Shown piece after piece: positions 2,368-60,059 of a stretch of DNA of 64,000 nucleotides. Within the stretch, counting starts at the first letter, position 1; the number at the start of each line of letters is the position of its first letter. The DNA is from Takakia lepidozioides (lineage: Eukaryota > Plantae > Bryophyta): contig CM060732.1 in the NCBI GenBank assembly GCA_030704615.1, positions 7,068,001-7,132,000 on the forward strand, given 5' to 3'. The position numbers were made by a program, and so were the translations under genes. The notes under the pieces are model-generated. The model searched no databases and was not told the origin of the DNA. It saw nothing but the letters and a program-made list of their open reading frames with translations.

Positions 2368-2430
2368 ACTCTGCACAATGGTTGGCCGTCCAGGAGCAAT
2401 CATAAGCTACTTAGATGACAAACAATTCAT

Positions 2431-25832: not shown

Positions 25833-28800
25833 CACTAGAAGAGAAACCGGCTTTTTCCACGGTTCTGCCATCTCACACCTGGCACATTCCACGGCTTTTA
25901 TCACGGGTCTGTACACTGAGCCAAAGTGTGGGTCTAAATATGCCCTAACTGTGGGGTGTTTCACATGTGGTCCACACCCCAGGCAAGAACGGTGTGAAAA
26001 CAGCCATGAGCGTGGCAGGGGTTGACTTAGTTTACATGGCATGTTACACATCTGTGTGAAATGGGAACATACAATTATTTCCACTGATTGTGGTGTATGG
26101 GGAGTTTGAGAATGATGCCCTTGGAAAATGATTATGAACTTCATGTTCATGTTTAGAAATCTGCACGATGGGCTACTAGCAAGTGAAGAATCACCCCCCG
26201 CTACACCCCATTTTCAATCTCTACGTTATGAAGTCTATAATGCCCTTGGTGAAATGAGCATGGGGATCGCATTCAAAGGTGGCCCCGTTCCATTGCAACC
26301 TATGACACAACTAGGACAAATAGGCATAGGCATGATTTACACTTTTTGCCACAAATCACTTGCATCATCCTTACGTTGAACTCATTGTTTATGTGACACG
26401 TTTGGACTTTGTCATCTCACACATCAAAGAAAAAACCAGAATATTTCGAAAAAATCCTAACCTAAATTTACTAACAAGTGTTCAAACCAACCCAATGGTA
26501 ATATATTTTATTACCATTATCAAATGTTTGTCTACGTGGTGTTTTGGTTTTCTAGACAAGTCTGGTAGCAAGATTTTAGCCTCTGACCTAGAATGAATCA
26601 AAATGCAAAAGGTTAAAAAGTCAAAAAGTTGCTAATAAGGTTGCCCATTAGGGTAATCGTGAACACAGAAGAGGGCTGGGATTTGGCGTTTTTTTTTTTC
26701 TCCTGTGCCACACCATGTAGCAAGGGATAGAATGCGATGATCGCAGGATATGCAGGGGCGTGGGATGGAAGCGTTGAACAAATGATGCAGGAAGGAGGAG
26801 AGGAGGAGGAGATGAGACGAGGAGAAGCTCGCAACATTCTTGCGAGCTCGCCGTTCTTGGGAGAGTTATCTTGGTCTTAGCAGGCCGTGTTTCAATCTCT
26901 GCCTACTCAGCTGCACCGTGGCGGTTCGATCTCACAGACCAATCCGACGTTACCTGACTACAAACACAAGCAGCACACACAAGAGGTCCTTTTGGGTTGA
27001 TGGTCGGTCAAGTCATGACACAAGCTCAAGGATAATGTGGTGAGGGCATCTTCTTCTTTGACCTATTTCAGCCTGTTTTGCCCTCTCACATCATGTTTGT
27101 GTGCATTGCAATGCTTGTGCAAGCCTGGCAGCCCTTGAGAAGGACAAAGAGGTGCATGGGGATATCATCAAAGCTGGAATTGTACCTAAAGTCATTCGAA
27201 ACATTGCCCTGGCAGCTCTGGAAAAGGGGAAGGAGGTCCATGGTGACACCTTCAGAGCTGGAATTGTACCAAATGTCATTTTGAACGATACCCTAGTGGA
27301 CATGTATGCAAAATGTGGGTGCATCGAGGATGCAAAGGGAGTATTCAACACTATGGCTGAACGAGATGTGGTGTCATGGAGTGCGATGCTTGCAGGGTAT
27401 GCACAGCAAGGACGTGGGATGGAGACTTTGGAGACCTATGAGCAAATGATGGGGGAAGGGGTTCAGCCCGGCCACATCATGTTTGTGTGCATTGCAGGCC
27501 TGGCAGCCCTGATTTAAATCAGGCACCTCAACCATGACCACAGCTTCTAAAAGAGGATCAAGAGAGGGAGTCCATAATGCCTCTTCTGCCTCTTCTGGGC
27601 ATGTGAAGATGCTTTGTGAGGCAGGCAGACTGAAAGAGGCTCTACAACCTTTAAACCAAGGAGCATTTCAACAGATTCAGATATGTATGTCTGTCTCTTG
27701 AAATGAAGGGTCTGGAAGCTGGAAAGCAGGTGCACACTCACATTATCCAAAGTGGATTCACGCCAAGTGTTTTTCTCCTCAACACCCTTGTGAACATGTA
27801 TGTTAAGTGCAGGAGCATCATGAATGCACACCGAGTGTTCAACGGAATGCCTCAACAAACTTTGATCACGTTGAATATAATGTTGGCAGGATTTAACATG
27901 GGTGTGGTAGGAATGCTTTGGAGACCTACGAGCAACTGCTGCGCAAAGGGGTGAAGCCCAACCACATTACATTTGTTTGTAATGCATGTGCAAGCCTGGG
28001 AGCTCTGGAAAAGGGCAAAGAGGTCCATGGTGACATCGTCAAATCTGGAATTGTACCCAATGTCATTCTGAGCACTGCCCTGGTGGACTGCATGTATGCC
28101 AAATGTGGGTGCATCGAGGATGCAAAGGAAGTGTTCGAAAATATGGCTGAACGAGATGTGGTGTCGTGAGTGCGATGATTGCAGGATATGCACAGCAAGG
28201 GCGCGGATGGAGGCTTTGGAGAAATGATGTGGGAAGGGGTGATTCCCTATGGAAAAATAGCTCCAAGAAACCTGCATGGGTAGATGGTCAACTGGAAGCC
28301 GCAGCAGCAGCGGCACAATTGATAAAATCAGGCAATGCTAATCAAGGCACATTCCTCAACACATTTCACTCTGTTTTCCCCTCTTATCCCTCTCTTATCA
28401 GAATTGCCCTAAATTTTCATGTTTTAAGAATTCTGCAAGTTAGCTGGTTGAGTGAACCTTTGATAGTTTGGAGTGACTTTGACATGATACTGCCAAAGTG
28501 ACAATAGGAAAGTATCCAGAAATATGTAACAGAGAGGAGAAGCTGTGGAATGAATATTTTTCTGACCCCAGTCAATGGTGGGACAACCGTTTTGGAAGGT
28601 AAATGCCTTCGGTTTACAGAGTGGTAGATGCAATTGAGAATATGAGCTGATGTGATAAGTTGAGTTGGGTGTTTGCTGGAACAAATCTAGGCTGCCATTG
28701 TCAGCTGCTAACAGTAATGCACGGATGTATGCATTATCTGTGCAGAGGCATGGATAGCTGAAGGAGCAGGGATAGAGTGTCATCCAAGAGGGCCAGATTT

Positions 28801-29666
28801 CAAGCTCCAGATTACTTATGATTCCCTGTGGAAGGATAGCTACAAGAAACTTGCATGGGTAGATGGTACATAGTTTGGAGTGATTTTGACATGATACTGC
28901 CAAAGTGACAATAAGAAAGTATCCAGAAACATGTAACAGAGATGTGGAGAAGTTGTGGAATGAATGCTTTTCTGACCCCAGTCAAGGGTGGGACAACCGA
29001 GGGAAAAAAATGAATGTCTACTAGATTATAGAGAGTAGGAGACGCAACTCAGCATAGACACTAAGGCAAACTCTCATTACCTGCAAAGGGTGTGTTTTGG
29101 TATCTGAGCGAATAAATATAATTTCTAAAAACATAATTTCAATATTTTGTTATTTAATAATGTTCGCATCAAGGTCACTGTCCATTTTTCCTATAATAAT
29201 AATCATCATCATCATAATAATAACAATAAATTAAATCCATTAATATTCAAACTTAATATTGGAAATCAATTAATAATTAATTAATGCGTACCACCACACA
29301 GGAACGAACACGTGTTGCATAGTGACTTGTCGAAGGTGTGAAATATGACACGTGTCGCATAGTGGCTTGTTCAAGGTGTAAAATCCGCCGTGAAACATGC
29401 CCCACTGGCCTTTTTCACACTCTGCCATGTCAGCTATGCCATCGGCCATGTCAGCGGTCATGTCACCATGCACCCCGTGAAAAAACCCACCCATGGAAAA
29501 AGCCTCCCGTGGACTTTTCCACAGGGCTACCCAAGAGCCAGGCCGTCCATGGGGTGTCCGAAAGCACTAGTCGTTTCTTATACCCACGGCAGGTGTGGAC
29601 TGCGGCTGATTCCACAGCAAAAAGTGTGGAAAAAGCCGTGGAAAAAAGCCGGTTTCTCTTCTAGGG
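25833..29666. mobile_element. Non-autonomous CACTA (En/Spm) DNA transposon carrying PPR fragments
   Basis: Left TIR CACTAGAAGAGAAACCGGCTTTTTCCACGG at 25833. The right end reverse-complements to CCCTAGAAGAGAAACCGGCTTTTTTCCACGG (ends 29666). 3-bp TSD AGA on both sides, subterminal ttccac/gtggaa repeats, no transposase. Confidence 0.9.
27085..28215 (+). pseudogene. PLS-class pentatricopeptide repeat gene fragments (frameshifted)
   Basis: ACASLAALEKGKEVHGDI.KAGIVPNVILN.TLVDMYAKCGCIEDAKGVFNTMAERDVVSWSAMLAGYAQQG and GKQVHTHIIQSGFTPSVFLLNTLVNMYVKC, broken by several frameshifts. Confidence 0.92.
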
Positions 29667-32600
29667 AGAGAGAGGGAGAGAGAGGGAGTGTTGAGGAAAA
29701 TAAAATAAAAAAGAAGGTGGGGTGGGGTGGGGTGGGGGGGCGAGGGGGTGACTGAGCAGCATCTGCTGCTCACTCACTTCCCCCCCCCCAACCTTATTTT
29801 TTATTTTTTTTCCCTCATCTCTCCCTCACTCTCCCTCTCTTCCTCTTTTCCCTCATCTCTCCCCCTCTCTCCCTCTATCCCATCAGGATATGGAGAGAGA
29901 TGGAGAGATGGAGGAGGGAGAGAGATGGAGTGTAGAGGTAAAAATAAAAAAAATAGAAGGTAGGCAGCAGCTGCTCAGTCACTTCCCCCACACCTTCTTT
30001 TTTATTTTTTTTCCCCTCATCTCTCCCTCACTCTCCCTCTCTCCATCTCTCTCCCTCTCTACTGGGAATTGGCAGTTTGCTATCAGTGTTGACTTCTTGT
30101 TTTCTCATCCTCTATCAGGCTTTTTCATCCATACCGGATGAGCCACCAGGATGGACACTGAATTACCTCTAGGACGGTTCTTTTGGCCTTTTCATTCCTC
30201 ATTTATTGACTCTCATCCATACCGGATGAGTCACCATGGAAGAAAAGAATTACCTCTATGAAGGTTGCCAACAACATCTTGTTTTTCCATCCGAAAACTA
30301 CCAGGGTGATAATTTTTCATTCCTCTTTTATTGACTCTTTTTATCCATACCAGATGGTCTGGTGAGGAATGATAGAATTACCTAGATAGACGTAAGGCGC
30401 TGCCACAGATGATATTCCCTACTTTTTCATCCTGACACAAGTGATCTGTCTATGGATGATGTGATTATGGCCTGGAATTGATCTTTACTACCCCTAATTA
30501 TGATTTATTACGATGAAAACCCTAACCCCTACCCCAAAACCTATTTTTAACCTTGCTGCAGATGAAATCCGTTAGGGTATACGGATGCGTCCTACTATTT
30601 TTCATCCACGGATGAATAATCGGGGGGACAACCCTATGTCGTCTGTCCCGTTGTCAGAAACACGCGACGTGCTTCTGAGCTCGCGAGTAGAGTGTTATGG
30701 CGGACGTGCTTCGGTGGCTGCCCCGTTTGTGGTGTCGTACCCATGTTGGACGAGCGCCTGGGGGGGGCGCAAAGGTGGCGCCTTGTCTCTCTTGCAGCGG
30801 GAAACGCCGCTATGAATGCAGTGGCATCTTCCTTCCTCTGGCTTTTTTTGTGCTTAGCAATGATGGGAAGTTCTCTCCCTCCTTTCTCGTGCCTCGCGAT
30901 TGTGCCTGCTTTGCTTCATTGCTTATGTGCTTTGTGGAGGCGACTTGCTGCAGGTGGTGATGGTGCATAACCCTCTTCCCCAATCGCTTAAGGTGCCTTT
31001 GGAGTTTAGGGATTCTTGTGTTCTTATCTCTTTCTCTTGCTTTTGAGTTTCTTAGTTGACATCGATGACAAGTGTGAGGGTCTATGATTCACCTGGGGTT
31101 CCACAATCCTCACCAACCTGTTGGTTTTTGTGGGGGCTTGTGATGGGACCAGGTGAGGATCCTCACCTCTTTTGAAGCTTCTTGAGCATGTAGATTGGGA
31201 TATGGGTTGAGAAGACCTGTGGGTTTTTGCGCTGTGAGGTGGCTGCTGCCTGCAGCCCCGATTTCAACCCGACTGCTCCTGGTTTGGCATGCTACAGCCT
31301 GGTTTTTGGCCTTTGTCGTTCTGCCGTCGATGCGCAGCTCGGCCTGACTGGCCTGTCTCCTGAGGCTTGCATACAAACAATACCCTACCTCTTGATCTTT
31401 GACAGCAGGGCCTGTGGCTTATTGAGCTAGGTTATAAGTTCTTTTGGCCAAAGAGGATCTGGTTTTAGGTATTACGTTTTTGGCAGTTTTGGGTCTCTAT
31501 GGACATGGTGGCCTTGAAGGGTATGGCGGCAGCCTGATAAGGCACCGACCTGCTCCTTTTCGGGCCTATTTCTGTTGAGTACTGGATCACAGTGAGGTGT
31601 TCTTTGAATGCTTTAGCATGGAACTCTTGAAGGATGAGGATGGTAAGCTGCAATGGGATCCTACCTATAGTTTTGGCTTTGTCATGACATCAGGCCTATG
31701 ACTTGCAATCTGGTTTTTTATATGCAAAAGAGGCTGGATCTCGGCTGTTCAAGCTGCTTGTATGTACAAGTCTTGAACCTGCAATTTGACAGGCTGAGTT
31801 CACATTCCCTTGACACCTTGTATGATCACATGTCTTGGGGTGAATACAAATGATATGGAATTTATTTCATCATGCCCAAGTAGGACTGCTTGGTGGCATA
31901 TTGTGATTCTGACAAATTGCAGGCTGGTCCTTATGTCTTGGCTGCTGCATGACCTGCCATAATTAATGGCTGAAAAGGTAAGATGCTGCAACCCGTGGGT
32001 CATATCCAAGATGTATGTGTGAAAACGTGTCTTGAAATGGTAATAGGGCAGGCTGGACCATGGTACCTTGCCCTTTGCACAACCTCAACATTTTTATGCT
32101 TCTTCAATACATGACCTGCTGGTAAGGTATGTGTGCAGGCTGAACCAAGAGGCCTTGCAACCTGCACAGGGGCAACAATATCTTATCTTGTCCTACACAT
32201 GAACACATGATTCATTGGCCAAGATGGCCGGATCTCGGGTGTTCAAGATGCTTGCATCCCCTACATGAACAAACCCCGCCCTCCCACCCTGTTTTATCAT
32301 GACTGATTGGGTGATGTCAATTCATGGGAAGCTATGACAAGAATGGAAATGTTAGATGGTGCCATGTTTTGGGTTGTTTATGTCTTTAATTGACAATGAC
32401 CCTAGTGGGTCTTGTCCATGTCTTGACATGACATGAATATCTTCCCTCTGTCCCATCAGGATGTGGAGAGAGAGGGAGAGAGGGAGAGAGAGGGAGTGTC
32501 GAGGAAATAAAAAATAAAAAAGAAGGTTGGGGGGGGGGGGAGTGACTGAGCAGCAGCTACTCAGTCACACCCCCCACCTTTTTTTTTTTTTTTTTTTCCT

Positions 32601-33495
32601 CATCTCTCCCTCACTCTCCCTCTGTCCCTCTCTCTCCCCCTGTCCCATCAGGATGTGGAGAGAGAGGGAGAACGTTGAGGAAAAATAAAATAAAAAAGAA
32701 GGTGGTGGGGGGGGGGACTGAGCAGCAGCTGCTCAGTCACCCCCCCCCCCCCTCCCGCCTTCTTTTTTATATTTTCTCCCTCTCTCTCCCTCTCTCTCCC
32801 TCTGGAAACTGGGTTTATGGAATTGTCGTCCCGACTTCCATCTTTGAGAAAATTGAAAAAATTGAAAAATTGGGTTGCAGGGAATTTTGGATGTTTTTTC
32901 ATCCAAAATACAAATCTTTCCCTAGTGAAACAGTTCTTCACTAAATACCTGTGAGGTGCAAAACTCCCGTCAATCAATCCAACCTGGATGAAAAAATGAC
33001 TTCATCTGACAGGACCTAAATACGGGGCAAGACAGGTATAAACCCCCGATGTTTTTCATCTAACCTAGGTGAAATACGGACTGCATCTGTGGAGTTCAAG
33101 ACGGGATGAACGCACGATGTCTTTCATCTTCCGTGAATGAGAAACGGACAACGTCCATTGGGCGTACAGGCTGGCGGATGTTTTTCATCCTGAGAAGAAT
33201 GAATGACGGGCCAGATAGGGGAAAACCCTGCGCAACCCTAATGTCTTTCTTTTTGCGCTGTAAGAGCGCGTGCGATGGTGGTGGCTTAGAGATGAGGGAA
33301 GATTCACTGTCTCAGTTGTCTGTTTTTTTGCTGCACAAGGGAACCGAGGCAGTGATGGCGGAGGTACCACCTGCATGCTTATGACGTTTCCCTAGGAGCC
33401 CTCCTCTGGATCTTTGATGAATGGCGGCGTCTTGGTAGAACAAGGAAGTCTCTCTCCTTCCCTTTATAAACCCTACCTTTTGAGACCAAGCTCTT
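29667..33495. repeat. ~3-kb repeat family units (foldback GA/G-tract head plus ttttcatcc/ggatgaaaa subrepeats); second unit interrupted at 33495
   Basis: The head catcaggatgtggagagag...gactgagcagcagctgctcagtc...ctctccctc recurs at ~25650-25832, 29667-30060, 32445-32800, 49930-50090 and 53150-53640. Segment 32800-33495 aligns with 50085-51120. Confidence 0.8.
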
Positions 33496-33579
33496 TGTCG
33501 TGCGCATACATATCGCTACACAACTACATCGCTGTCCAAACCACACCACACATATATGCACAATAAAGTAGTCTGCCAC

Positions 33580-35676
33580 ATCGCACACCAGCATGGTGGC
33601 TGCCCCTTTAGCAGACCCACACAACATGCACCTCAAACCTGCAGATACCACTACCAGGTTTGGGTCAATCCTGCCATCAACATTCGGAAGGTGACATGGC
33701 GCACAATTACGCACATGGTCCTTCCAAGTTATGCCATCCCGACCCTCCAAGACCAAGACGCCTGAGGGCAAGACCTCTCGAACCCTCAAAATAACACGTC
33801 CTGCAGTCACATCCAGGGTCGTAGGAGCAGTCTGCTGCAGATAGACATAGTCACCAGGGTTGAATCTCCGAACCCCAGGACGATAGCCCCCACCACGTAT
33901 GGTAGCATATTTCAACGTACCACGGTGTTGTGCAATGGCAAGGTTCTCGAAAGCCATGGGCATGACTCTCTTGAACAACTCTGCACGCTGCTCACATGCA
34001 TGTGCCCACACGTCCGGATCGTCAAGGTTAAGAACTATAGCAGCTTCTCTGCGAATGGATGTAGGCAAATCCGGCTCTCGGCCAAAGAGAAGAAAGTATG
34101 GTGAGAAGGAGGCAAGTGATGCTTGCTTGCTGAACCTGTAGCCCATGGCTAACCAGGGTAACTGAAGGTCCCAATTTCCTAGGTGTCCCTTCTGCAAGCC
34201 ATACTTGCGCAAACCCCTCTTTACTGTCTGAACAACTCTCTCTGCCAAGCCATCGGCTTCAGGATGATCCCGAGAAGTGGTGCGGTGGTCTATCAAGGCC
34301 TTGTCACACAAAGCCTGAAACTCCCCCAAGAACTCTCTCCCTTGGTCCGTGAGTACCTCAGCTGGAGCACCGAATCGGCTAAGCACACAATCCAGGAATG
34401 CATACGCAGCTCCCTCACTAGCCTTATCAGGCAATGGAACCAATTCAATCCACTTGGAGAAGTGCTCCACCATCACCAACACGTACTTGTTGTGGCGCAT
34501 GGTCAGTGGCAACGGCCCTGCAAAGTCAAGACTCCACCTGTAGCCCAATCCCATGATCGGAAGAGGGTGCAATTGTGGAGTAGGGGTGTTGAATGAAGCA
34601 CGCACCCTGTCACACACCATGCACCTAGCCACAAATTGTTGCACCTCTGTGTGCATACCACGCCACCAATACTGCCCCTGCAGTAGACTATGAGTGCGTC
34701 GCACCCCAAAATGCCCCAACTCCTCATGGGCATGCCGCACTAATCGTGCCCGATGTGTTGGGTGAGGCACAATCCTCACTCGACCATCCTCCCACACTCG
34801 GAGCAGGTGTGTCCCCTCCCACCTGAACCTCTTGGCTCGTTGTAGGATCCGATCCCTCTCCTTGGCAGTCATAGTGGCTGCCGTGTCTCCATTGCGGAGG
34901 TAGTCCAACACAACTGAATCCTCATGTATATCTTTGGCGCCACCCTGCTCATTGTTGGCCTCAGGGTCCTCAGACACTTGATCTACAGTCATCCCTGTTG
35001 TAGGTCCAACCTGGCCTTCCGTTGCCAAGATGCACAGAAATGCAGATGCATGCCATCCGGGCACCATCTCCTCGTCCGTCTCACCATGCCACCGAGCTCC
35101 AGTGTCATCCTGCTGGCTCGTGCATGGATTGCGACTCAACCCATCTGCATTTCGATTGACCAAACCCGGTCGATGCACCACCTGAAAGCCATACTCTTGA
35201 AGGATGAGTGCCCACCGTGCAAGCTTCCCCGTAAGCTTGTCTGACTCCATCAACCACTTGAGTGGTTGGTGATCCGTGACAAGGGTGAAGAGATTTCCGT
35301 ATAGATAGCACCTGAAGTGTGCCACGGCCCACACTGCAGCTAAGCATTCTCCCTCATATGAGCTATACTTAGACTCTGCAACATTGTTCGAGCGGCTAGC
35401 ATAAGCCACTACGAACTCTCTTCCCTCATCATCCACCTGTGTGAGCACCGCTCCAAGCCCCAGCATGCTCCAATCTGTATGCAGCTGAAAATGACGCCCC
35501 CTGATAGGTCGTCTCAAGATGGGCGCCGAGGTCAACCTCGCCTTGAGCTCTTGAAAAGCTTGTTCTTGCTCATCTTCCCACTGCCACTCCTGGTCCACCT
35601 TGGTCAGCTTGGTTAGAGCCTTTGCAATGACACTAAATCCCTTAACAAACCGTCTGTAATAGTTTGCTAACCCCAC
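33580..35676 (-). pseudogene. Pol C-terminal part: RT connection, RNase H, integrase (HHCC, DDE) and start of a PHD finger (truncated)
   Basis: GLANYYRRFVKGFS; LHTDWSMLGLGAVL, YEGECLAAVWA, TDHQPL; HEELGHFG...CMVCD; LDFAGP, TDQGREF, AERVVQTVK; finally CMLCGSAKGAATMLVCD, where homology stops at ~33580. Confidence 0.95.
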
Positions 35677-35682
35677 GAAAGC

Positions 35683-36600
35683 TCAAACTCGGCTCACATC
35701 CGTGGGGCGTGGAACCTGTGCAATGGACTCTACCTTAGTCTGCTGTACCCCCAATCCTCCAGGATATATCATGTGACCCAGATACTCAATCTGGTTGTGG
35801 AAAAACTTGCACTTGCCCGGATGTAACTTCAATCCGTGCGTCCTCAAGCGCTCAAATACCCCCTGAAGGTGTCTCTCATGCTCCTCCACCGTAGCACTAA
35901 AGATGATGATGTCATCTATGTAGCACCGAGCAAACTCCACCCCTGCTAGAATCCTGTCCATGACTCTTTGAAACTCAGCGGGAGCGTTTTTAAGCCCAAA
36001 TGGTAAGAACCGCCACTGGTATAGGCAATCCTTCCCGTGCTCATTGATCCCCCAGAATTCTTTTGCTTATCCGCCTCCTTGATCGGCAACTGGTGATATC
36101 CGGATCGTAAATCCAACGTGCTAAAGACCTTGGAATGCCCAATGGCATCAAAGATCTCCTCTGGTGTTGGCATGGCATACCTATCGGACTTGATCTGACG
36201 ATTTACAGGCCGGTAATCACCGCACATACGTCTCTCCGTCCAATTGCCATAGACATCCTTCTTAGCTGGCATCACTGTGGCTGAAGCATACTCTCCACCA
36301 GAGAGCTCCACCAAACCTGCCTCCCAGAGATCTTGAGTCCTCATCTGAATCAAAGACCTCTCCATGTCACTGTATCTATAGGGTCTCCGAAAGATTGGCA
36401 TGTCAGTGGCCAACTCAATACGGATCTCTTGACCCTTCAGTGCTCCCAAGTCCTTCAAACTGAAGGCAAAGCAATTCCTGTAAGCCCTCAGGAACCGCCG
36501 TATACGTCGTCTCTCTCCTCCGGTGACAATGGGTCCAATGTCAGGCTCCCAATTGTCCTCCGTAACTGCAACCTTAAGTCCAGTGGGCTTAGAGGTAGAG
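35683..36600 (-). pseudogene. Ty3/gypsy reverse transcriptase
   Basis: IFRRPYRYS, RMCGDYRPVN, YAMPTPEEIF, FSTLDLRSGYHQL, LPFGLKNAPAEFQRVM, YIDDIIIFS, KCKF...YLGH. Frameshift near 36055 and in-frame TGA at 35683. Confidence 0.96.
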
Positions 36601-36890
36601 GACGCGTCCCGTGGTTGCTATGCTGCAACCTCTTGAGCAGTACCCCCTTCCTGCTCAGTCAATGACAAGGCCTCATCCTGCCCCATCATCTCATCATTGA
36701 GAACTTCCTCAACCCGAGAAAAATCCCCAACCTCATCCATCACAGCTGCCTTGGCTGCCAACTCCCTTTGGACCTCGAGCACCTCCCACGTGTGCCATGG
36801 ATGTCTACACCCCGTGGTCCTCACCGGCTCGCCCCCACTCGCTGCCTGTACCGTCTCGGTAGGCAGAGAGACCATGAAGGGGAGTGCACT

Positions 36891-37875
36891 CTACACTCTA
36901 CGTTGCTCAGCCATAGCCAAGCTGATAATCCAAGTCAAGCAATTGAGATCCATTGCTTGCCCCAACACCTGACGCCGTGATGCCTCAGAAAGAGAAGGCA
37001 CCGCCGTGGTCCCAGTGGAAAACCCCATAGCCCGCTCTCGCTCGTCGGCATTAGGCTCCACTAACTGCTGCAACTGAGCATCCCACAGGAGGCCAGGTCC
37101 ACCATCCCGAAAAGCATGAGATCCTGGGAAGCTGAGCAGTGTAGGTAATGCTGCTCGTGGTTGACCTACCCTGTTGACCACTGCCAAAGGCAAACGGTCA
37201 TCGTGTCTCACACGTTGAGACTGTCTCCCTGTGTCCAAAATGCCATCCACGGTGAGGTGTGCTGGCCGCTGCACCCCATCAAATGCACGCTTGAGTAGTG
37301 CGGGTGGCATCAAGTTAGTCCACCAAAGCCGTGGACGATGAGCCCGAGACCCCACTGCAGCTGCATCCAGCAACACTGCTGACCCAAGCCACGACCGGAC
37401 TTGATGCACACTGGCCATCACCCTGGCCCGAGAATCACCCATCAGTGGTACATTCTCCAAGATGTATGCTGGAGATACAGCTTGATGAAGCTGCAAGCAG
37501 CGCAAAATCCGCACCATCTCCCAAAACAGACCCGTCCTCGAGTCTCGCAATCCATTGCCATGCCCGGCTGATGAATGCCCTTGGCAGGGCCAACCTGCCA
37601 CTACCAGTTCAATGGAGCCAACCTGCTCCAAATCCTGCGCCCCCAGCAAAGAAATGTCTGCTGACAAGGCTTGTTGGTATCCACGAACTGCAGACACTGG
37701 CAACAAGTCAGGGTATTGCTGTACCAACTGAGCAACATGGCGCAGTGAGACGCGTCGTGCAGTCTCATCCCTCTCCACATACAGGTAACGTCGAACTCGT
37801 ACACCTGCCTGTAGCACAGCAGCCAATCCGGTGCTGATCCCGCCAAACAAGTCCAGAAGGCAAATGCCTTCATCT
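36891..37875 (-). CDS. C5 DNA cytosine methyltransferase domain (DNMT3-like) embedded in Pol between protease and RT
   Basis: Within ORF 36891-38489: motif I LLDLFGGISTG, II YVERD, III ADI, IV VAGWPCQGHS (catalytic Cys ~37585), V DSRTGLFWEM, VI ILENV, VIII AHRPRLWWTN, IX ERERAMGF, X RRQVLGQAMD, in non-permuted order. Same frame as the protease C-terminus upstream and as RT downstream (two in-frame TAGs in the linker). Confidence 0.95.
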
Positions 37876-38249
37876 GGATACTGCCACACAATAGGTGTGG
37901 TATCCAATGGTGACAACTGAGGTGGTCCTGGTGCAATACCCGCACTCTCCTCCTCTCCTGACGGAACAAAAGCCTCTACCCAGGCTTGTTGCACCCGTCG
38001 ATCAGTAACCTGCTGCAAATCCTTGCTCGTACCCCACAATGGAGTGTGAGCAACCATGGCAGGCAACTCCGCCGTACCATGCATGTCATCCTGCTCTGCT
38101 GGAGGTGGCACATCCTCTGCATGGGCATTGCCTTCCAACAACTCTCTAGGCCAACTAACTGCAGCTGTAAAGGCGGTTAGTGTTGGCATCTTGCCCCGCT
38201 GGGCAGCTGCTATACCCCCAATGAATGTCACAGGGAGCTGTGCACGGCG

Positions 38250-38620
38250 ACCATCGCCTGACTGCCATCCAGGCCTGTAGGATGCTGACTCCTCCCAAAA
38301 ATCCAGGGTGAAGCCCATGGGGTATAACACTGCCCCACCAACGAGGACATCGTAAGAGACTGCGTCTGTCACAATGGCCTTGGCTCGCATTACTGAGCCA
38401 TCGATAGGATGATCCGGCTGCAGTCTAATGGCCAACTGCCCCGAGCCTGCTCTGATCCTCCCAGAGATGTCTGTATCTGGAAAGGACAAGGCTCCATATC
38501 CGCCTCCATGAGGCCCAAACCTGCAATAGCAGCTCTACCCAACATCAGTGGCTGAGCTCCCGAGTCCAACAAGACCCGCAGTGGCCGGTACTTCTTGCCT
38601 GCCGGTCCACTCAAAGTGAA
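38250..38620 (-). pseudogene. Retropepsin-like aspartic protease
   Basis: RVLLDSGAQPLMLG, then, after a frameshift near 38450, YDVLVGGAVLYPMGFTLDF. Confidence 0.9.
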
Positions 38621-40784
38621 AATGCCTCCCTGGTTGTCTAACAAGACAACTCCAGGTGTCACCATGGCGCGCTCAAAGGCTGGCCTAACTGGCAGCTCCG
38701 TCAACCTGACAGCTGCAGCTTGCCAGGGCGCAGCCGTGGCAGTCTTGACCCTCAAATCCGAGGATCCCTCTGCCACTACACCTTCCACTAACTCCGCAGA
38801 AGATGAAGTGACCTCCCCATTTTCACAGAGTGTTGCTGCTAGTCGGAACACTGCAGCTGGTCTCACCCCCGGCGTCGCAATCATTGTTGCCGAGAACAGT
38901 GGGGCCTGACACACAGAGGTGGCTGCCCCCAATAACACACCGGCCGCACTAGCCTTGGCAGTAGATGTCAGTGCTGCACGTGTAGCTCTCCCCAATAGCA
39001 TAGAAACCTCCGCCTCGGTAACAGTCGGGCGAGAACTAGGTGCCATGGATGATGTTGAAACTGTCTCCGCCAAGGTGAACGACTGAGGCAGCCTTGCCTG
39101 ACGGCTTGCCTCCCCACGTTGTGGATCCAACTCCACCTCTGCACCTCGTGGCTCAGGAACTCGTGCTGCTCCTCGAGTCACGGCTGCAGCAGACTCCACC
39201 TGCTCTAGTGGTAGTGCTGTTCCGCACATGAATCCCATGCCTCCCATATCTCCTCCCTCAGGAGCAGGAGGTGGACCATCCCGCCTGGGGGCCGGTACCG
39301 CCTGAGCTATAGCCATGGCAGCGAGCCTCTGCTCTAGCTGCTGAAGCCGATTGGCCATGCCTTGGTCAACACCCTGACCTCCGCGTCCTTGGCCATGTGG
39401 AGCTTGCCCTTGGCCTGCACCTCGTGCCCGACCACCTCGTCCTCTTTGGGCTGGTCCACCTCGCCCCCGGCCACCATTGTTCCCTTGGAACTGGCCTGGG
39501 CGCAACTCAGGATGCAAGTCATAACACTGAGCATCTCCATGCCCATACTTGCCACAATGCCCACACTGCAACTGTGCAGGCTGTGCTTGTGCCGGCCTTC
39601 TGCCACTCTCTGGGTAATCTCTCTTTGACATGGGGTCCTCCACATGTCCAACATATCACCCCTGGTTGCTGTTGGCCTGCAAAAGATGCCACGGGCCTCT
39701 GCACCTGAGGTCCCCTATAAGCTCCATGGAACTTGGGCTGGGCAACCTTGCCCCCCTGACCACGCTGTTGAGCGGTTCCTTGTGCCTGTGGGCTGGCAGT
39801 TAAGCCTCGTGTAGGCATGTCCTTGCGAAATCCAATGGTAACAACTCGCTCCTCCACCATGTTGAGCTCAATCCGCTCAGCCAGCAGAAACACATCTGCT
39901 AATGTGGGTTGGGCTGCTTGTAACAGGGTTGCATCTCACACCCTTCTCTTGAGCTCCTTATCCAAAATTCCATACCAAAACTGGATTGCCTGAGCTTCAG
40001 TAACCCCTTGGGTCACACTTATCAAGCGCCTCATACGAGTGTACGCCTCTCGCAGGCTCTCACTGGGTTTGCGCTGGAAGTCTTGCAAACTTCGCAGCTT
40101 TTCTGTCCGTACACCTTGGTAGTTCCTCCGCAACTCCTGGAAGAACTCCACCACCGGGTTGAATCTAGGCACATGTGTTGTAGTCGTGACAGGAGGAGTA
40201 GTAGCACCTTTTGAACTGGTACCACCTGCAGAAGTACCAGCACTACTTGCTCCACTACTAGTGCTGGCAGTGGGAGCTATTGGTACTGACGCAGCTACTG
40301 GTCGCGTCGTGCCTCGAGTAATGGAGACGTAGTCAGGTGACCAATACATCCTCTACTCCTCAATCTCTGCTTCATGTCCCCGCCTGAACTCGTGATAATC
40401 ATCCATAGGCGGGCCTTCCAAATGCTGGAACAGTCCCTTCCACGCCATGAATGGGGTGAATAGCTGTGGATTGCGCATCTGCTGCAAATCACACCAGCTG
40501 TCAAACTCCTGGATAAAGTCATCCAATTCGATTGTGCCCACAGCTCCAGAGTACCTACGAGGCCCCTTGGTAGCTCCATACATCTCCTCCATGTCGTCCC
40601 ACAACAATGGCGAATGAAACTGCACACCTGTTGATGAAGCCTCCGAATCTGTGTCTGACTCTACAGTAGTTGAGGATGGCGGTGAAGGTGGTCTGAACCG
40701 AATACCTCGTCTTGTGAACCCACTCACTGGTACTGCTTGTAGCCGTACTCCCCTCAAAATCCTTGGGTAACTCCGTAATGACAC
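38620..40784 (-). pseudogene. Gag with zinc knuckles, disrupted
   Basis: Capsid-like RRYSG...LDDFIQEFDSWC...QRKPSESLREAYTRMRRL...AIQFWYGIL; knuckles CWTCGGPH and CGHCGKYGHGDAQC; RGG-rich tract. In-frame stops at 40353 and 39936, frameshift near 39625. Confidence 0.88.
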
Positions 40785-41325
40785 TCACAATGTGCACCTC
40801 CTCCACGTGACACTATAAGTCTCTAGTACTAATCTAATAGTGACACGGGTGGGCACCTGTTGCAGTCTAAGGGTCATATCCCAATGGCTCAGGGCACCTG
40901 CACCTGCATCCACCGCAAGAACTCCTATGGTTGGCTGGTCATCAACCCAGCCTCACCATAGAAGAAACACTGGTGGTCTTGCTGGTCATCACTCCAGCCT
41001 CACCACCGACAGCATACTCTAAGATTGACCGGTGATCAAATCCGGCCTAATCCCTATGAAAGCAAGCGCCCACACAAAACCAACATGGCGCACAGTCAAG
41101 CATGTAGGTGTTGGGGGGGATCCAAACACAAGAAATCAAAACATCAACACCCCCACACCAAAATCCAACAGCAACGCTGATCCTGCAGAATATCCCAGCC
41201 CAAAACCCCGGACTGACTGGCCTCCACCAAGAGAGGCTTTGGCAACTACAAGTACAAGGTAATGAAAATAGTACAGAGATGGAGGGGAAGAATAGAAGCC
41301 CGACCCAGCAAGATCTAATCCTGAT

Positions 41326-42075
41326 CTATGCTATCAACTGCCAGACTTCTCTCAAAGTGCCTCGCTCTGCATGATGGTAAGGTGTAGGAGGTATATCTAT
41401 GTCCAGAAACCTGCCACTAACCTTGTCCCAAGCTACAGTAGCTCGCTCTAACCAACCCTCCTCCTCTTTTTGCCAAGTAGAGACAAAGCAACACTCTGCT
41501 ATCTCCCGCTCACTGAACACTAAAGAAAACAAAGGTAGAGTCTGATAGTCTCTCAACTCGAAAGCTTTGAGACGGTTGCGGGTGTCCTCATTGCGAATGA
41601 CTACATCTCCTTCAAACAGAACAAACTTGTCCTCGCTAATGAACCCCCGCTCGTGGTTGCCTTGTGCAGAGCGTGTCCGGCTGCAACGCTGTCTGATTGC
41701 ACAAACTTGTGTAGCTCCTGCTCCTCTGCTCCAGTACACCACAGCCTTGTGGCTGAACACCTTGGTCCCCGGGGCTATCTTTGGCTGTGTTCCAAGCCTA
41801 GCTTTCACCCACTTTGGTATTTCACCTACAGCTGCAGAACTGCTGGCTCCAACAGAGTTCTGACTGTCCAAGGCGGTATTGAGGCCCTCAATGCCAACTA
41901 CAGCAGTCTGTTGCCTACTGCTAATGCCTGACTCCCAGTATGCAATCAACTCGTCCAACTGTTCTCCACTCAAATCAGTCTGAGTTCCTTGGGAAACATA
42001 AATCCTGTCCCCTTGTGTGCACAGGCTAAGAGAAGAGACCTGCCCTTCAATTACGTCCTCATTTCCCCCAGCCAT
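41326..42075 (-). CDS. Uncharacterised 249-aa ORF upstream of gag, same strand, inside the insertion
   Basis: Uninterrupted ATG-to-stop ORF with protein-like composition; no family recognised. Confidence 0.55.
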   Translation of the reverse strand: MAGGNEDVIEGQVSSLSLCTQGDRIYVSQGTQTDLSGEQLDELIAYWESGISSRQQTAVVGIEGLNTALDSQNSVGASSSAAVGEIPKWVKARLGTQPKIAPGTKVFSHKAVVYWSRGAGATQVCAIRQRCSRTRSAQGNHERGFISEDKFVLFEGDVVIRNEDTRNRLKAFELRDYQTLPLFSLVFSEREIAECCFVSTWQKEEEGWLERATVAWDKVSGRFLDIDIPPTPYHHAERGTLREVWQLIA

Positions 42076-42654
42076 GCAAGGAGGACATCCACAGATTTGT
42101 CTCTCAAATAGACCAGAATTGGTTCTAGAAACATAATTGTGGATTTTTCACGGCACACTCACACTCTAAAAATTCCATAGATTTTTAGCAGAGTCCCAAA
42201 GATAGGTAGATTTCCCCTTTCTGCAGCTATTCCCCCAAAAACTGAGTCAAACGGAGTCCATCTGACAAAGTTATGACCAATCAGGCTCTAAATCATTTAA
42301 ATTAGATCAAAAGGTTTTTTTTTTTTTTTTTTTTTTAACACCAAAACGTTCTCGCCATTACAACCTGTTCCCTGGTTATCTACGGGTTCCCGAGGCCGTT
42401 CATGTAGTTCTCACAGGTTCCCTTACCAATGTCCACAGAGCTTGAGCTGCCAAAAAAAAAAAACGGGATCTTTGCACCACGGCCAAGGAAGGGGCCGCAG
42501 CAAGCCGCGTGCATGCCATTGCTGTCGCCATCTCTTTCCCGCTTCCTCACCTAGCCCAAGCTTGCAAACTCTGAGTGGGCTCTGTTGCGAGATTCTCCTC
42601 GCCGAGCAGATGCCAGCACAGCGACGGCAGATCGAACGGACGGCCAATCTTCGA

Positions 42655-42951
<297 letters not shown>

Positions 42952-43069
42952 TGATTTGGTGTCCGCCAGACTTGTGCTTCCTGGCCCCAGCCGAATAGAG
43001 AGAACGCTGCCCAACAATTGTAGACTTCCGCTTCGCTTATTTGAAGACGATGCTTGGCAAAATCTTATC

Positions 43070-43900
43070 TTAGTAAGTGATATTAAGAAACTTGGCCATG
43101 GCTTCCACGGCACCTGGTGGCCACTGCAGCTCTACACCAATCCACCTGATATTGCTGTACTGCGGTTCCCGAGCAGTGGCCTCAGAGAACTGTTCCTCTG
43201 CCCGGCTGCGGTCACCTTCTTTCCATAGCACTGCCGCTAGAGCTGCATGAGCCTCAGTGTAATTTGGATACTTCCGGACAAGGCCTTGTATCAGTTTCTT
43301 GGCCTCCCCCAATCTGTCGAGCTGAAAGAGAACCAGAGCTTACTTGAGTCGGTATCCTGCAATTCCAAGAGCCAGCACTGAGGCTCTGGAATAAGCAGTC
43401 AAAGCAGTGTCATAGTCACTTACTCACGCTTCCACCTTTCCCAAGTTAAACCAAGCTGCAAACTCCTCAGGGTCATTGACAATGGCAGTTTTGCAGTCGG
43501 CAATAGCCTCCTGATAGCGTCCAAGTGCCTCGTAAGAAATGACGCGATTAAGAAATGGGACTGGGGCCTCGGGAGCCAGCTCAATAGCCTTACTGAAATC
43601 CTGGGCCGCCTCCTCAAACTTCAGAAGGGAGACCCTCACACTCCCCCGGTTGGACCAGACACTGGCATTTGCGGAATCCTCATCTATCAAAGCTGAAAAC
43701 AATTCTTCAGCAGTTTCCAGGTCTCCAGCAATCGCCGCCCTGAGAGCATCCTGCAGCTTGGGATTTTCAACGTCTTTGAGCTTTACTCTCGTTGAAACTG
43801 CTGCTTTTGCAGGAAGATCAACATTGCCCAACCTTAGTGCTCCAAGTGCCACAGAAAGGCTGAATAACAGCTGGCGTCGGGCAGTTACTGACGAGTGCCC
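43070..43900 (-). pseudogene. Intronless copy of a chloroplast/thylakoid TPR protein gene (cyanobacterial-type family), two premature stops
   Basis: One frame from RRQLLFSLSVALGAL...AKA (twin-arginine lumen-signal-like) through TPRs (VWSNRG, PFLNR, AWFNLG) to LVRKYPNY..AHAALAAVLW...WPP..VEAMAKFL. In-frame TGA at 43424 and TAA at 43340. The transit-peptide region probably extends to ~44100. Confidence 0.85.
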
Positions 43901-44373
43901 TGCGATACCGACATTACCATCTCTTCCTTCTCGTTGTAGTCGTCACTCTGCCTGGCCGCTCCTCAGCTACAGACCGCAGGCTTCACTGAAACTTGAGCTG
44001 GGTAATACCCTGATTCTTGGGCTCTCCATAAACGGTACCCTTGCTCACAGGCCTCTTCAATCCAAAAAACGGGCTGGCTTGGAGTCACCCATGGCAAGCC
44101 CTTCATCTCCACTCCACACGGCAGCCCTGAGACGATGACAGGATCGCTGCAGAAGAATCTAGGCACGAAAAAGAGCTAACCTCTAACCCGTCGTTACTTG
44201 ATGAATCAATCAGGCAGCATTCATCTCCAGTAGCCTGAGCAAGATCTCTACTAAACGCGTGACTCCAGCAAGATCCGCTAGCAGTAACTGCAAGTGAAGT
44301 ATCCGCCGCAAGCTTAATAGCTTTCTGCCGCTCCGGAATGGTTAAACACTCAGTTGAATCATTCACAGACCTG

Positions 44374-44809
44374 TGTCACACCAAGGTATATTATAATAGT
44401 GCTAAAACAAACATTATATCTAGCTTAGCACTAGAAAACTAGATGGCGCATCTCTCTCGAGTGATAGAAATCCAACGAACACATTGTTGACACAAAACAT
44501 GAAAACCAAACCATCACTCTTAGAAATAGTAGTCAAGCCAGGGGCACCCCAAGCTATGGGGACTCCACCCCACAACAACCTGTACCCCTACATAAGCACA
44601 CTCAAATCTAAACGCATGCAGGAGCTCGGTTGCGCAGGCTCAACTCGAGAGAGATGAACTGCGCGACTGCCGCTCTCGTGAAGATAAGACGGACCAGGTG
44701 TCAAACTAAACTTGACACCTGATTTAACACTTGACCTAAATCCAAGTGTTAAATACAAATAACTAGTTTTATTCTAGCTGTTTTCACACTGTGCTTATTT
44801 AACTTGACA
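44374..44809. repeat. LTR-like terminal segment of the composite insertion
   Basis: 436 bp with TGTCA...TGACA ends. Its right end coincides with the insertion boundary. No homologous partner found at the other end. Confidence 0.55.
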
Positions 44810-47800
44810 TCTTTTTTCTTGTGCTTGACAAGGCTTTGCTTTGGTTAAGGTAGCAATGTTGTGGTGCTGGCAGAGTCCTCCCTGCACGGTTAGGCTTGTG
44901 GAGAGATGACGACTCTCCCCCAAACAGAAAAAAATATATATATATATTTTTTTTTCTGTTTAATTTGCTTCCCTACTTTCTTTGGCATTCTATGCGCTTA
45001 GATTGAAGTGTATTTGACCTCGATAGCAAGTGTTGAAGCCTGCTACTCACCTCGTGCATCCTCACTAACTCACAACGCGTTGTGGTTGTTTTTGGGACGG
45101 GCACAGGTGAGGGCTTCCACTTAATATTCTGATGTCTAGGTGCTGTTGGATGCCAAGTGGGATCGCAGAGCCGGGGAAGGAATCGCTTGCCAGGGACTCA
45201 TCTTAAAATGGTGAAAAACTAAACTACTCTATGGTTTTTCTTGATCCTACCTCTTTCATTCCTTGATTTTTCAAGAACAAGTGTAATGTTTTCTACGATG
45301 GGCTATTTCGGCCCAGCCAGTGGAAAACCTCTGTTATGCGGTGACAGCCTGGTTTATGATGACTTGTGTGAGAGACACACATCTGTTTTCCAGGCCCTAG
45401 TTTGCTTTGCTTACCTTATGGTAGTTGGAAACAAATTGAGAGGCTGCAAGGAACCGTTTGCTGCAGCTACTCGGGTACCTATGTTGGTATAAGGCCCCTG
45501 TTATGTTCCAACCCAGATGGCTTTGTGAGCTAGATGCTTAAGCCAGGGTATGGTGAAGTTGTTGTCTGCGGCTATTTGGCTGACACTGAAATATGACAGT
45601 AATATAAATGGTAACTAGTTTTTGAGGCAGCCAGGATGGTCAAGTGGAAATACCCCCTGGACATGGTGTAATGACATGGTCAAATGTGGAATGATGTGAA
45701 GGGTGTACCGACAGTATCATATACTGTCACAAGATGTGTGTGCAGTCCTTTATATTTACCTTGCTGTGTCATGAACTTTGATTTTCAGCTATAGCAAGAA
45801 ATAAATGTATAGGGGTATTCTGGAAAACTGACCAGACATATCCACCTCCCCTGTGGGGGCAAACTGTGCTGCAGACCAGCCTAAACAAATACTGGCAAGG
45901 CAAGGTATTTAAAATCTGTGATATCCAGGTGTTCCCTTTTTTTTTAAGAAAACCCTCCATGACACCCATGGGGTTTTAGTAAGTATGCTTGGATTACAGC
46001 TTGCAGACAATAAATCTGTATGATTATTTGACTTGCACCACATCAAGGCCAAAATATGGCCAGTACCCGCCACCCCACCCAGACCTCTGAATGTGTATCA
46101 TGATCATGACTGGTGGTCAATCAGCATCAGTGGCATACTCTTTGGGTTATGAATAATACTGACATGAACACATTACTGTGCATGGATGTAATTCTGGATT
46201 TTCTAAGCTTGGTGATTGATGGATGGTGCCACTGTTAAGTAGCTGATATGTCTGATTATTCTTTCATGACAACGACCCTAGGGATCTTTGTCTTGACATG
46301 ACAAAAAGTATCTTCCCTCCCTCTTTCCCACATCTCTCCCTCTCTCTGCAATCCTTGGCAGATTTGATTTTTTATTGATCCTTTACTACTCTGTAAACTT
46401 TTTTGTTTAGGGTTATAATGAGACATGCCTATTGTTTAAGGGTCCCTAATCAGGGTAAACATATGACAGTCTATGGCTCTGTAGTAGGCCCGTAGGCTAT
46501 GCAAGTGTCTACATATCACAACAGGCACGTATCTACCAATGGCAAGTTAAGAATATTTGGCAGTGTTTTTATTACACCCCTTTAACACCTGGAAAAATCT
46601 GATGTATATCACTATGGTGCAAACTCAAACAAACTTTTATGGACCTAATGTCCATGGTTTGATATCCCTAATCAGGGTTAATTGAACTACAAGGGATCAG
46701 ATGACGTAACCGCTTGATGTGGCAACTTCGTAAATACTGGTACAAGGAGTGTCGAGCAAATAGCTGGACAATCTAAGCGTAACCGAGATGCAATCCTGGC
46801 AGAGACGGGAATTGCCACCTTCTCCCTGCATACTCTGTTATGAGTGCTTCAATGTTGATTCCCGATTTGTGAATAATGTGAAGGAGGCTGCGAAGGTAGA
46901 GCTAATTTGCTACCTGCCCCATCAATTGTACCCAGAATTGGGGATTTCACATACAGGTGGCAGACCTTATATGAAAGGGTATATTGTTCAAGTATAGGCC
47001 AGTAGGACATGTGTTAACCGGTTACAGCAAACACGCGTCTACCGGTACAAGGTACGTAATAATGGAAATTCAGGCTATTCGTGCATACTATAATCACACG
47101 AAGAGGGCAGACCACTCCCTCCCGACTTACCTGTTTGAGCACTCGAATTTTCAAGTGCCTGGAAGGAGGGTGCGAAGGTATAGTAAAATTACTACCGGCC
47201 CCATCGTTGAGTCCAGTATTGTGAATTTTGCGTACAGGAAGCAGTGCCTGGAGATCAGCAGGTACATGCCCAGTATGGTTTTACAAGGGGAAGATCCTCT
47301 TTTCTATTCTGCTTGCATATCTATTTTGATGCTAGCTTTCGTGAAGATAAGGGCAGCCTTGGATTGTGCTTGGTAAAACCTACTTTACTGGTCTTACTGT
47401 GATTAAGGGATTTCGAGTAACAACCTCCTCCCTCAATAAGTGCTCTAAGTGGCTGGACTGGCAGTTGTTACGATGCTGACGGGGGATAGTCCAAATGATA
47501 CCATGTTCTCTCCAGGGAGTACTTTCCTCAATATGCATGGAGCAAGACCTGGAGATCACTTGAATTATGTATGGATTGACTCCATTAGGGAAGTTTTCTC
47601 CCTTCCGTATTTCATTACTTGCCAAGTATGTTGTTTTCACTCTTGAAGTAAGAGCAGCCTTGAAGTTTTGGGATAAAACCTATATCACTGGTTTTACAAT
47701 GATGAGGATATATGGAGAAGCCACATCCTCCCTCCGTAAGTACCCTAAGTGCAGGACGGGCAGATTTCATGATTGAGGCTTGGCCATAAGCAGCACTTTG

Positions 47801-53640: not shown

Positions 53641-53999
53641 TTGATGCTGCAAGTTATTACCATTTTCTTTCTTTCTAAGAAAAATGATATATCCTTTGTT
53701 TAAACTTGACAATGCAGATTACCGCATTTCTTATCTCTAAGAAAGGTAATGATAGCTTTATTCCTCTAAATAACCAGCTGCACACTTTTCCTGGTGCTGA
53801 GAATTATTGAACTGGCATTGAGGCATTGGCTATATATATTTTTATATATATAGTTAGATTGGTGTCTAGTTCTGTAAAGATCCATGTTTTTTATTCAACG
53901 GAAGTTTGAGAGCATAATTTACCTATGCGAACTTATAGATTGATGTCCATTGCCATAATATTTATGGTAACATACCCTTTGGTGGCTTCAGGTTTTCAC

Positions 54000-58560: not shown

Positions 58561-60059
58561 GTGGAGGAGCTCAATTTTGAGAAGCCCATACCATAGTTTG
58601 CTACCGCTTAGTATAAGTCGTGATCGGTGAATACAAGATGTTCCCCAAAGGAATATTCATTTCTTCAAACCTTTTCTTGGCTCGGTAGAGTGCCAATTCC
58701 TCGGGCATATCTGCATAGCCCACTACTACAGAAACCCGGTTTTTCCAACACCACCCATAGTTCACACCTGGCACTTTGAACAGCTCCTCTTACACCCATG
58801 TGAGAGGAGGCAAGGTGTGATCTGGACCATTGTAGGAAAACCCACATGGTGTTACAAATTTCACACTCCAATGACACCCATATGGTCAACGGGTGTTGAC
58901 CAAGATAATGCATATGGGGCATTTGACATGAATGTGAAATGAGTCATGGAGTGTGAGGTTAGTATAGGAATTTGGGGCAACTATATGGCGTGGCACATTG
59001 ACCATCCAGGTGGAAGATAGATGGATGAAATGACTTCCACCTCTATTCAACATGCCTTGGACGACATAACACATAGACTTTTGTTTAGAGAATTTAAAAG
59101 TTCAAAAATGTTATTAGGGTTATGGGGTCTGCATGTAGATGGTTGTGGGACTTGTAGTTTTTCTTTGCCGGCTCGTTTAGAATCTGAATGCCCACCAGTG
59201 CAGGCCATCCATTTAAGTTGATGCCAAAATGCATTTTCATCCAAACATCAAAGCTCTCAAAATAGACAACCTCAAGTAAAATGAGAAGGAAATCGGCAGA
59301 ACCGAAAGGGCATAGAATTCTCTTCAATATTGAACACTGCCTGCAACTATTGGCTATAACTTGCCCTCTGTCCTATCACATATAATCCCTTCGGGAACCA
59401 GCAATCCAAAAACATGCACTGCTCATGCAGTTGACGACAATATCGTTATGAGAATGTCACACTATAATCAACAATGTACAACAATTGCTTTGAGAAGCTA
59501 TAGATAAAACTACCTCATGTCGTCTCAGAGATTTGTGAGCGCCAAAAATGTCAATCCCATTTCTGTCCAGTCAACCTTGACACGCAGTTCGGGACACGCA
59601 GCAGAGAGGGCGTAGGCGCATGTGCACAACAACCCTAGGCCCCTCACAATGAGACAGTCTGAAGCTGAGCTGAGCACGAATTTCAATCTCTACTAGTCCA
59701 ACCGTACTAGAGAAATATCCAGTGATCCTCAGACAAGGCTTTCTTCACCACCTTACAAAAATTGTTCCCAATGACTACCTCCCTGTCCACATTGTTGCTT
59801 GATGTCGAGAAGCTTGGACAAAGTGCCTTGCTCTTTGTGACTGGCTCCCTTTTTGAGACAGCAAGGTTTTTTTTTGACGGGTGTACTTCACTCACAACCG
59901 TCTTTTTTACACTACGTCCGGGATATCAATGATCGCCCCAGCCTGAAATGTTGCCCCACCCTATCAAGCGCCAGTGTTTTTTAACCAGTGCTTTTCAACT
60001 CGTCTGCTGAGGGCCCCACTTTCTCCCCTCTACTGGTACATATCAAAATCACTCCAAGA

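Follow-up and report, generated by a model that had tools for sequence, protein, structure and literature searches.

The 64-kb stretch of the Takakia lepidozioides contig CM060732.1 analysed here (the window) carries a decayed Ty3/Gypsy retrotransposon in which a DNMT3-like C5 cytosine methyltransferase (DNMT) lies between the aspartic protease and the reverse transcriptase (RT). All positions are those of the whole window. The element is on the minus strand, so its coding sequence runs toward falling coordinates. In its relatives, a stop codon followed by CAR is conserved just before RT, and we therefore describe the family as Gag-protease-DNMT, a likely leaky stop, and RT-RNase H-integrase-PHD. 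DNMT-bearing Gypsy elements are already known as a kind. What is new here is the stop kept before RT in a readthrough context, the structure of the ends and their target duplications, and a second architecture.

The methyltransferase domain and its family

A reading of the window made from its letters alone (the sequence-only reading) had proposed an intronless C5 methyltransferase domain of about 330 residues. We find that the domain is real and comprises 335 residues (37898-36894, minus strand), with no stop and no intron. The open reading frame (ORF) that contains it (36891-38534, minus strand) matches PF00145 in a hidden Markov model scan (E 8e-12). Motifs I to X are intact and in unpermuted order, with motif I (FGG) at 37847, IV (PCQ) at 37589, VI (ENV) at 37457 and VIII (HRPRLW) at 37340, and with IX and X also present. 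As had been stated, the domain is in frame with the C-terminal half of the protease and the N-terminal half of RT, with exactly two TAGs between (36893-36891 and 36620-36618). Against PDB sequences, DNMT3A (2e-10) ranks ahead of DRM (7e-6) and M.HhaI (1e-3), and DNMT3A is the top fold match (E 2e-16) of the predicted model (mean predicted local distance difference test score 75). The earlier assignment to DNMT3 rather than DRM agrees with this, as a placement by PDB sequence and fold ranking. The catalytic EN is found in 280 of 302 aligned homologs, the two arginines of motif VIII in 285 of 314 and 292 of 312, and AGWPCQ in 68 of the 85 homologs that adjoin a protease.

Searches with the domain returned at least 197 near-length homologs (the best 120 of which were listed) and at least 65 longer ones. 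Those named come from Marchantia polymorpha, M. paleacea, Calypogeia, Riccia, Sphagnum, Chromochloris and Monoraphidium, with Closterium among the cluster members; no match named Klebsormidium occurred among those listed, and none of the named ones in these capped lists is from Physcomitrium, a hornwort, a fern or a lycophyte. A profile search collected 520 clusters at 50% identity, with E values up to 1e-30. In the best 80 of 166 related metagenome loci, the DNMT is preceded by the protease and followed by RT as far as the flanks extend, deleted and rearranged copies aside. The DNMT is thus a trait of the family and no one-off insertion, as it holds the same position in nearly all 80 related loci, in two liverwort orders, in mosses and in Closterium. 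Nor does it evolve neutrally across copies, being under purifying selection. Between subfamilies, the ratio of nonsynonymous to synonymous substitution rates (dN/dS) is 0.07-0.25 for DNMT (7 of 8 pairs computable) and 0.05-0.11 for RT (6 of 8), computed from loci whose domain contains two stops or fewer: 20 for DNMT and 35 for RT, out of 81 sequences. One host mRNA retrocopy has in fact entered the 5′ region of the window copy, and a host DNMT3 retrocopy could in the same way have fallen into one element as a one-off or neutral passenger. Given the shared position, dN/dS values of at most 0.25 and the 520 clusters, however, we consider this extremely improbable. A viral source of the domain was also considered and found no support, with one weak locus (35%, E 3e-11) among 14 pattern matches in viral contigs. 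Rows 2 and 3 of the Atlas matches are phage methyltransferase clusters, but matches of this sort are no sign of transfer.

The domain occurs at a second position in a sister group that includes chlorophyte algae. There it lies between RNase H and integrase, adjoining a PHD-bearing integrase, and motif IV often reads EC instead of PC. Members include P0158, P0160, P0180, P0390, P0397, P0414 and Chromochloris Cz02g39130, among others. Among the best 150 cluster representatives, 40 have the order RT-RNase H-DNMT-integrase and 44 are fragments that fit it, 15 fit protease-DNMT-RT, and 51 contain the DNMT alone. Both the 61-row DNMT tree (supports 86 and 97) and the 30-row RT tree (98) separate the two architectures; both were quick searches with midpoint rooting and with Shimodaira-Hasegawa-like approximate likelihood ratio support only. 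The DNMT and RT phylogenies that the sequence-only reading had called for therefore exist in part: the same main split appears in both, with rows that are all element sequences. Monoraphidium falls in the same clades as the RT-RNase H-DNMT-integrase type that includes Chromochloris. The window copy groups with elements of Marchantia, Calypogeia and Sphagnum (support 100), outside the known Sphagnum subfamily. From these trees, a single old capture of the DNMT, with relocation within the polyprotein, is plausible. We found no description of the sister-group architecture in literature searches, none of which was aimed at this group.

The stop before reverse transcriptase and the possible role of the enzyme

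Both TAGs had been taken for point mutations, which is correct for one of them. At positions 36892 and 36893, more than 99% of the depth of host-family contigs (runs X1 and X5) differs from the window, so the TAG at 36891-36893 is a lesion private to the window copy; P0015, a protein with 96% identity, reads through this position. The other TAG behaves differently. No difference to the window was recorded at 36618-36620 among the best 40 of 62 difference rows from host-family contigs, and a stop with CAR is kept just before RT in related loci. In the window this in-frame TAG is followed by CAA CCA (36620-36612), a full match to UAG CAR YYA, which is the established readthrough signal of plant viruses such as tobacco mosaic virus (PMC2754532, PMC4132726). 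We interpret it as the natural end of the first ORF (ORF1) and as a predicted readthrough signal.

We surveyed the stop in the 61 loci, window included, that have both the DNMT end and the RT start. In 59 of these, a stop in the RT frame lies no more than 25 codons before RT, and in 54 it is TAG or TAA followed by CAR, 13-20 codons before RT. The signal is kept in 46 of 52 loci after merging at 98% identity and in 7 of 11 groups at 80%. As background, CAR follows 30 of 883 other stops in domain matches. The seven exceptions comprise four loci with indels at or near the site (L062, L063, L071 and L080) and three divergent ones with a stop two codons before RT (L072, L073 and L077). Subfamilies whose synonymous sites are nearly saturated keep the signal, as TAG CAACCA (window and L006), TAG CAGTTA (L025 and L027) or TAG CAATCA (L040). 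The full hexamer was found in the window, L006, L025 and L027, and CAACCC in 47 of the 61 loci.

Predicted proteins end accordingly. Of the 72 protease-adjacent proteins long enough to include the DNMT end, 52 terminate 54-140 residues beyond it and lack RT. Several full-length ORF1s were found in Marchantia, with Mp4g09160, Mp5g06330 and MpVg00370 as full-length copies, and the Marchantia proteins of 1278-1281 amino acids all end 74 residues past the DNMT. Of the others, 6 end within 24 residues, 3 are longer but lack RT, and 11 run into RT, these being four plant gene models that skip the linker and seven divergent ORFs. The earlier description of the DNMT as lying inside Pol thus needs revision: it is within the element, between protease and RT, but it ends the Gag-protease ORF, and a conserved stop parts it from RT. 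We infer that ORF1 encodes Gag-protease-DNMT and that low-level readthrough would add RT-RNase H-integrase-PHD.

The reading that we slightly favor is that a leaky UAG follows Gag-protease-DNMT, that the DNMT is packaged at a copy number like that of Gag, and that it likely methylates new cDNA before integration. Ribosomes would mostly end at the conserved UAG, and low-frequency readthrough would yield RT, RNase H and integrase; on the basis of the sequence context, we hold readthrough of the ORF1 stop with fairly high confidence. Under the usual gag/pol stoichiometry, a product encoded in ORF1 is about as abundant as the capsid protein. The DNMT lies before the stop, and the methyltransferase would therefore be made in about the same amount. 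Its release by the protease inside the particle, leaving many copies packaged in each, is in our view probable. Methylation of the cDNA in or near the particle, prior to integration, is a step on which we are evenly balanced; by analogy to DNMT3A and the enzymes of Symbiodinium elements, it would probably occur at CG. More speculatively, a new copy might benefit by arriving marked like host heterochromatin, with the PHD finger of the integrase reading the target chromatin.

Several observations weigh against this reading. Motif IV is EC, not PC, in 81 of 269 homologs. Residues 215-270, which likely form the target-recognition region, are unreliably predicted in the model, so sequence specificity is not readable from it. 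The element is no more depleted of CpG (0.50) than its flanks are (0.37-0.43), and neither CpG nor CHG ratios separate the two. Within one young, decayed subfamily, dN/dS is 0.61 for DNMT (0.43 for RT). Seven divergent homologs (38-45% identity; for example P0399) run from DNMT into RT without a stop, and Gag-level expression is therefore not universal. In the largest related subfamily the stop is followed by CAACCC (a 5/6 match) and, in most copies, by an in-frame ATG; the TTTTTGCATAG context there looks like a splice acceptor as well. TAA variants (12 of 46) do not cluster on the tree and fit the background of G-to-A decay; for this reason we dropped them as evidence excluding splicing. Finally, the DNMT of a Klebsormidium element gave no methylation in yeast, a result that its authors call inconclusive (PMC5890265).

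Some of these points would suit a stop that is real but with Pol made by another route: the TAG might serve as a splice acceptor, translation might restart at an ATG close by, or an internal promoter might be used. The DNMT would still lie in the Gag ORF. In the main related subfamily, most copies have the ATG two codons past the stop, and a T-rich run precedes the stop; four plant gene models (P0126, P0128, P0131 and P0154) skip the linker. The flanks of the gag stop in Candida Tca2 also did not direct readthrough in yeast (PMC2194720). However, this ATG is absent from the window, L006, L025, L027 and L040, which retain the hexamer after the stop but no pyrimidine tract before it, and the four gene models join at different places. 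The sole contig of run X6 (RNA by guess) spans the stop without a gap. On balance, we judge such a route distinctly unlikely.

We consider it rather unlikely that the domain acts on the target site or host chromatin within the integration complex, or serves as a non-catalytic nucleic-acid binder in the particle, instead of modifying the element's own cDNA. The inactivity of the Klebsormidium enzyme in yeast speaks for this, as do the replacement of the motif IV proline in many relatives and the sister-group arrangement, where the DNMT sits between RNase H and the PHD-bearing integrase. Yet even very divergent copies retain the catalytic cysteine, ENV and RxR, and an enzyme encoded before the stop is predicted to be made in much larger amounts than an integration complex requires.

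Ends, decay and surroundings of the window copy

The whole element (33496-44809) runs from TGTC to GACA and has the form A-coding (truncated)-B. No pair of identical long terminal repeats (LTRs) was found in the window copy, whose ends are instead a 348-bp repeat A (44462-44809) and an 85-bp repeat B (33496-33580), both TG...CA. Repeat A was delimited by contig junctions, and B, which is joined directly to the truncated PHD finger, has 74% identity over 69 nucleotides to the B of a related family (E 2e-6). The element interrupts an older repeat, with contig joints at 33494-33496 and 44817. A paralogue of that repeat at 50898-51702 represents the empty site and aligns without a gap, which identifies a 4-bp target-site duplication, AAGA, with its 5′ copy at 44810-44813 and its 3′ copy at 33492-33495. 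One contig joins 44462 to 33580 (an A-B junction), and loose ends at 33496 read GC and then the start of A (B-GC-A).

Related loci have comparable ends. At the 5′ side they have A (about 340 bp). Seven loci close with B-A-B at the 3′ end, and 14 have one B there, after a purine tract in 10 and joined to truncated sequence in 4; one further locus ends in B-A, and one has B at the contig end. All seven related loci in which both ends were found have 4-bp duplications (two are the same insertion). The internal B/A junction consists of GACA, two bases and TGTC, like element ends joined together; this motif occurs in 8 of 80 loci and is kept in the divergent L025 and L040. In relatives, the purine tract lies directly before the first B, and plus-strand priming likely starts there. 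Inspection by eye of 21 5′ ends, with no tRNA set searched, showed no TGG-type primer site for a tRNA following A; in the window copy this region is deleted. We also considered a circle with two junctions that can be cut at either one, and dropped this model: it would give A-B-A-coding ends, and none of the 21 5′ ends has that form. Taken together, the family may belong to an ancient green-plant lineage of PHD-bearing Gypsy elements with a DNMT3-type particle component, in which the domain has been relocated from one position of the polyprotein to another, a leaky stop in bryophytes gives it Gag stoichiometry for methylation of cDNA before integration, and split repeats with an internal end-to-end junction replace tRNA-primed LTRs. 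We offer this combined picture tentatively, as somewhat doubtful in its entirety.

The domain order of the window copy is gag, protease, RT, RNase H and integrase, that of Ty3/Gypsy, with the DNMT between protease and RT. Gag with zinc knuckles (39300-40592) is about 60% identical to Marchantia P0372 and P0123 and is interrupted by two stops (40355 and 39938) as well as by a frameshift near 39620. The aspartic protease (38270-38665; DSG at 38566), whose relatives match Asp_protease_2, is broken by a deletion and a frameshift near 38440-38453. RT (YIDD at 35922) and RNase H (35100-36560) have a frameshift near 36060 and a TGA at 35685-35683. The integrase, with its H2C2 and core regions, and the first half of the PHD finger occupy 33581-34800; the core has an rve match, and the PHD finger is cut at 33581 but runs on in a related contig, and relatives match PF00628. 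The window copy is dead, with lesions in gag, in the protease, after the DNMT and in RT, in addition to the 3′ truncation in the PHD finger. Host-family contigs have similar depth over DNMT and RT.

Decayed copies L002-L078 show, over the DNMT-RT region, frequent G-to-A changes in CAG (26%), TAG and GAG (16%) and CG (17-19%) contexts, and a frequency of only 1-2% in TGG and ATG. This pattern is consistent with host CG, CHG and CT-type CHH methylation.

Two further insertions or reading frames lie in the 5′ region. At 42315-44400 (minus strand; 5′ boundary approximate) we identified a low-copy, intronless, poly(A)-tailed retrocopy of a TPR-protein mRNA, of host origin, with two stops in the TPR region. 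Element contigs have about a thousand times the depth of this insert, a ratio of depth and not of copy number. Upstream of gag, an extra open frame of 273 codons (41326-42147, minus strand) is without a Pfam family or an Atlas match and is missing from all 80 related loci. It is repetitive in the host, with contig depth about half that of gag, and many contigs diverge nearby, at 41163.

The proposal that the host is a land plant was borne out by a DExH helicase exon (10839-11210), which is 93% identical to Sphagnum jensenii. Among the best 120 of 423 matches, identity is 84% to Physcomitrium and Ceratodon, 81-82% to Marchantia and Calypogeia, and 69-75% to angiosperms. By this exon, and among the matches listed, the host is a moss close to Sphagnum, and therefore an embryophyte. 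The exon is part of a host DExH-box RNA helicase gene (10776-12687, minus strand, with neighboring exons). Elsewhere in the window we noted a LINE with endonuclease and RT domains (1629-5800, plus strand), a fragmented PPR coding sequence (27062-28168, plus strand), and an RT fragment (18784-19299, plus strand) and a zinc-knuckle fragment (22005-22112, minus strand) that likely represent a second decayed retroelement. A family of short hairpin-like repeats with CT/GA-rich arms, resembling miniature inverted-repeat transposable elements, occurs at 29645-30060, 32450-32800, 49940-50090 and 53140-53650, and a 968-base spacing of recurring ORFs in 60000-63800 suggests a tandem array.

Known elements and significance

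The closest known element is KnitGypsy-Dnmt3 of Klebsormidium nitens (de Mendoza et al., 2018, PMC5890265). As described in the available text of that paper, it shares with the present family the Gypsy domains, an intronless and unpermuted Dnmt3-like domain, purifying selection and DIRS-like split repeats; in DIRS ends, A repeats flank the ORFs and B repeats flank the 3′ A (review file of PMC5890265). The two differ in that the DNMT of KnitGypsy-Dnmt3 is in one ORF with RT and RNase H, whereas a conserved stop lies between them in the moss and liverwort family. In addition, the Klebsormidium capture is treated as specific to the K. nitens lineage, while the present family occurs in mosses and liverworts. 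The novelty claimed by the sequence-only reading was therefore overrated, as an element of this kind had been published and self-methylation by a transposon proposed for it (PMC5890265). Its part concerning land plants stands to the extent that we found no report of DNMT-bearing Gypsy elements from them in the literature searched, a set outside which most subscription papers, Repbase reports and theses fall. The land-plant rows of the 2018 survey are Physcomitrella and Selaginella, and Marchantia and Sphagnum are not in its supplements as available (PMC5890265).

The dinoflagellate elements SymbioDIRS-Dnmt3 and SymbioLINE-Dnmt also carry C5 methyltransferases, but they belong to other classes (tyrosine recombinase and LINE) and have no DDE integrase; the SymbioDIRS enzymes methylate CG in yeast (PMC5890265). 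Chlamydomonas Gypsy-7a_cRei likewise encodes a green-lineage Gypsy polyprotein with a PHD finger, but no methyltransferase is among the domains given for it in the text at hand (PMC9940879). Host DNMT3 (human DNMT3A structures; bryophyte DNMT3, PMC10952607) has the same catalytic fold and motif order. In contrast, the element DNMT is about 21% identical to it and has no introns and no N-terminal reader domains, and it is fused to Gag and protease. In the type I readthrough of tobacco mosaic virus, UAG is also followed by CAA CCA, in frame with the downstream polymerase (PMC2754532, PMC4132726). Unlike in that virus, the signal predicted here is in an LTR-type retrotransposon and follows protease and methyltransferase, not gag directly.

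Why a transposon should keep an enzyme of the class that hosts use for its silencing has been an open question since 2018, when there was one Gypsy example, algal and with an enzyme inactive in yeast. The family described here is abundant in mosses, and its full-length Gag-protease-DNMT ORFs occur in Marchantia, for which mutants and methylomes are available. Because of the conserved stop, such copies are easily taken for broken ones, and they can inflate counts of DNA methyltransferase genes in bryophyte annotations. The stop also gives a concrete prediction of where, and in what amount, the enzyme is made, and with the full-length ORF1 copies of Marchantia polymorpha, self-methylation by a transposon can be tested in a model plant.

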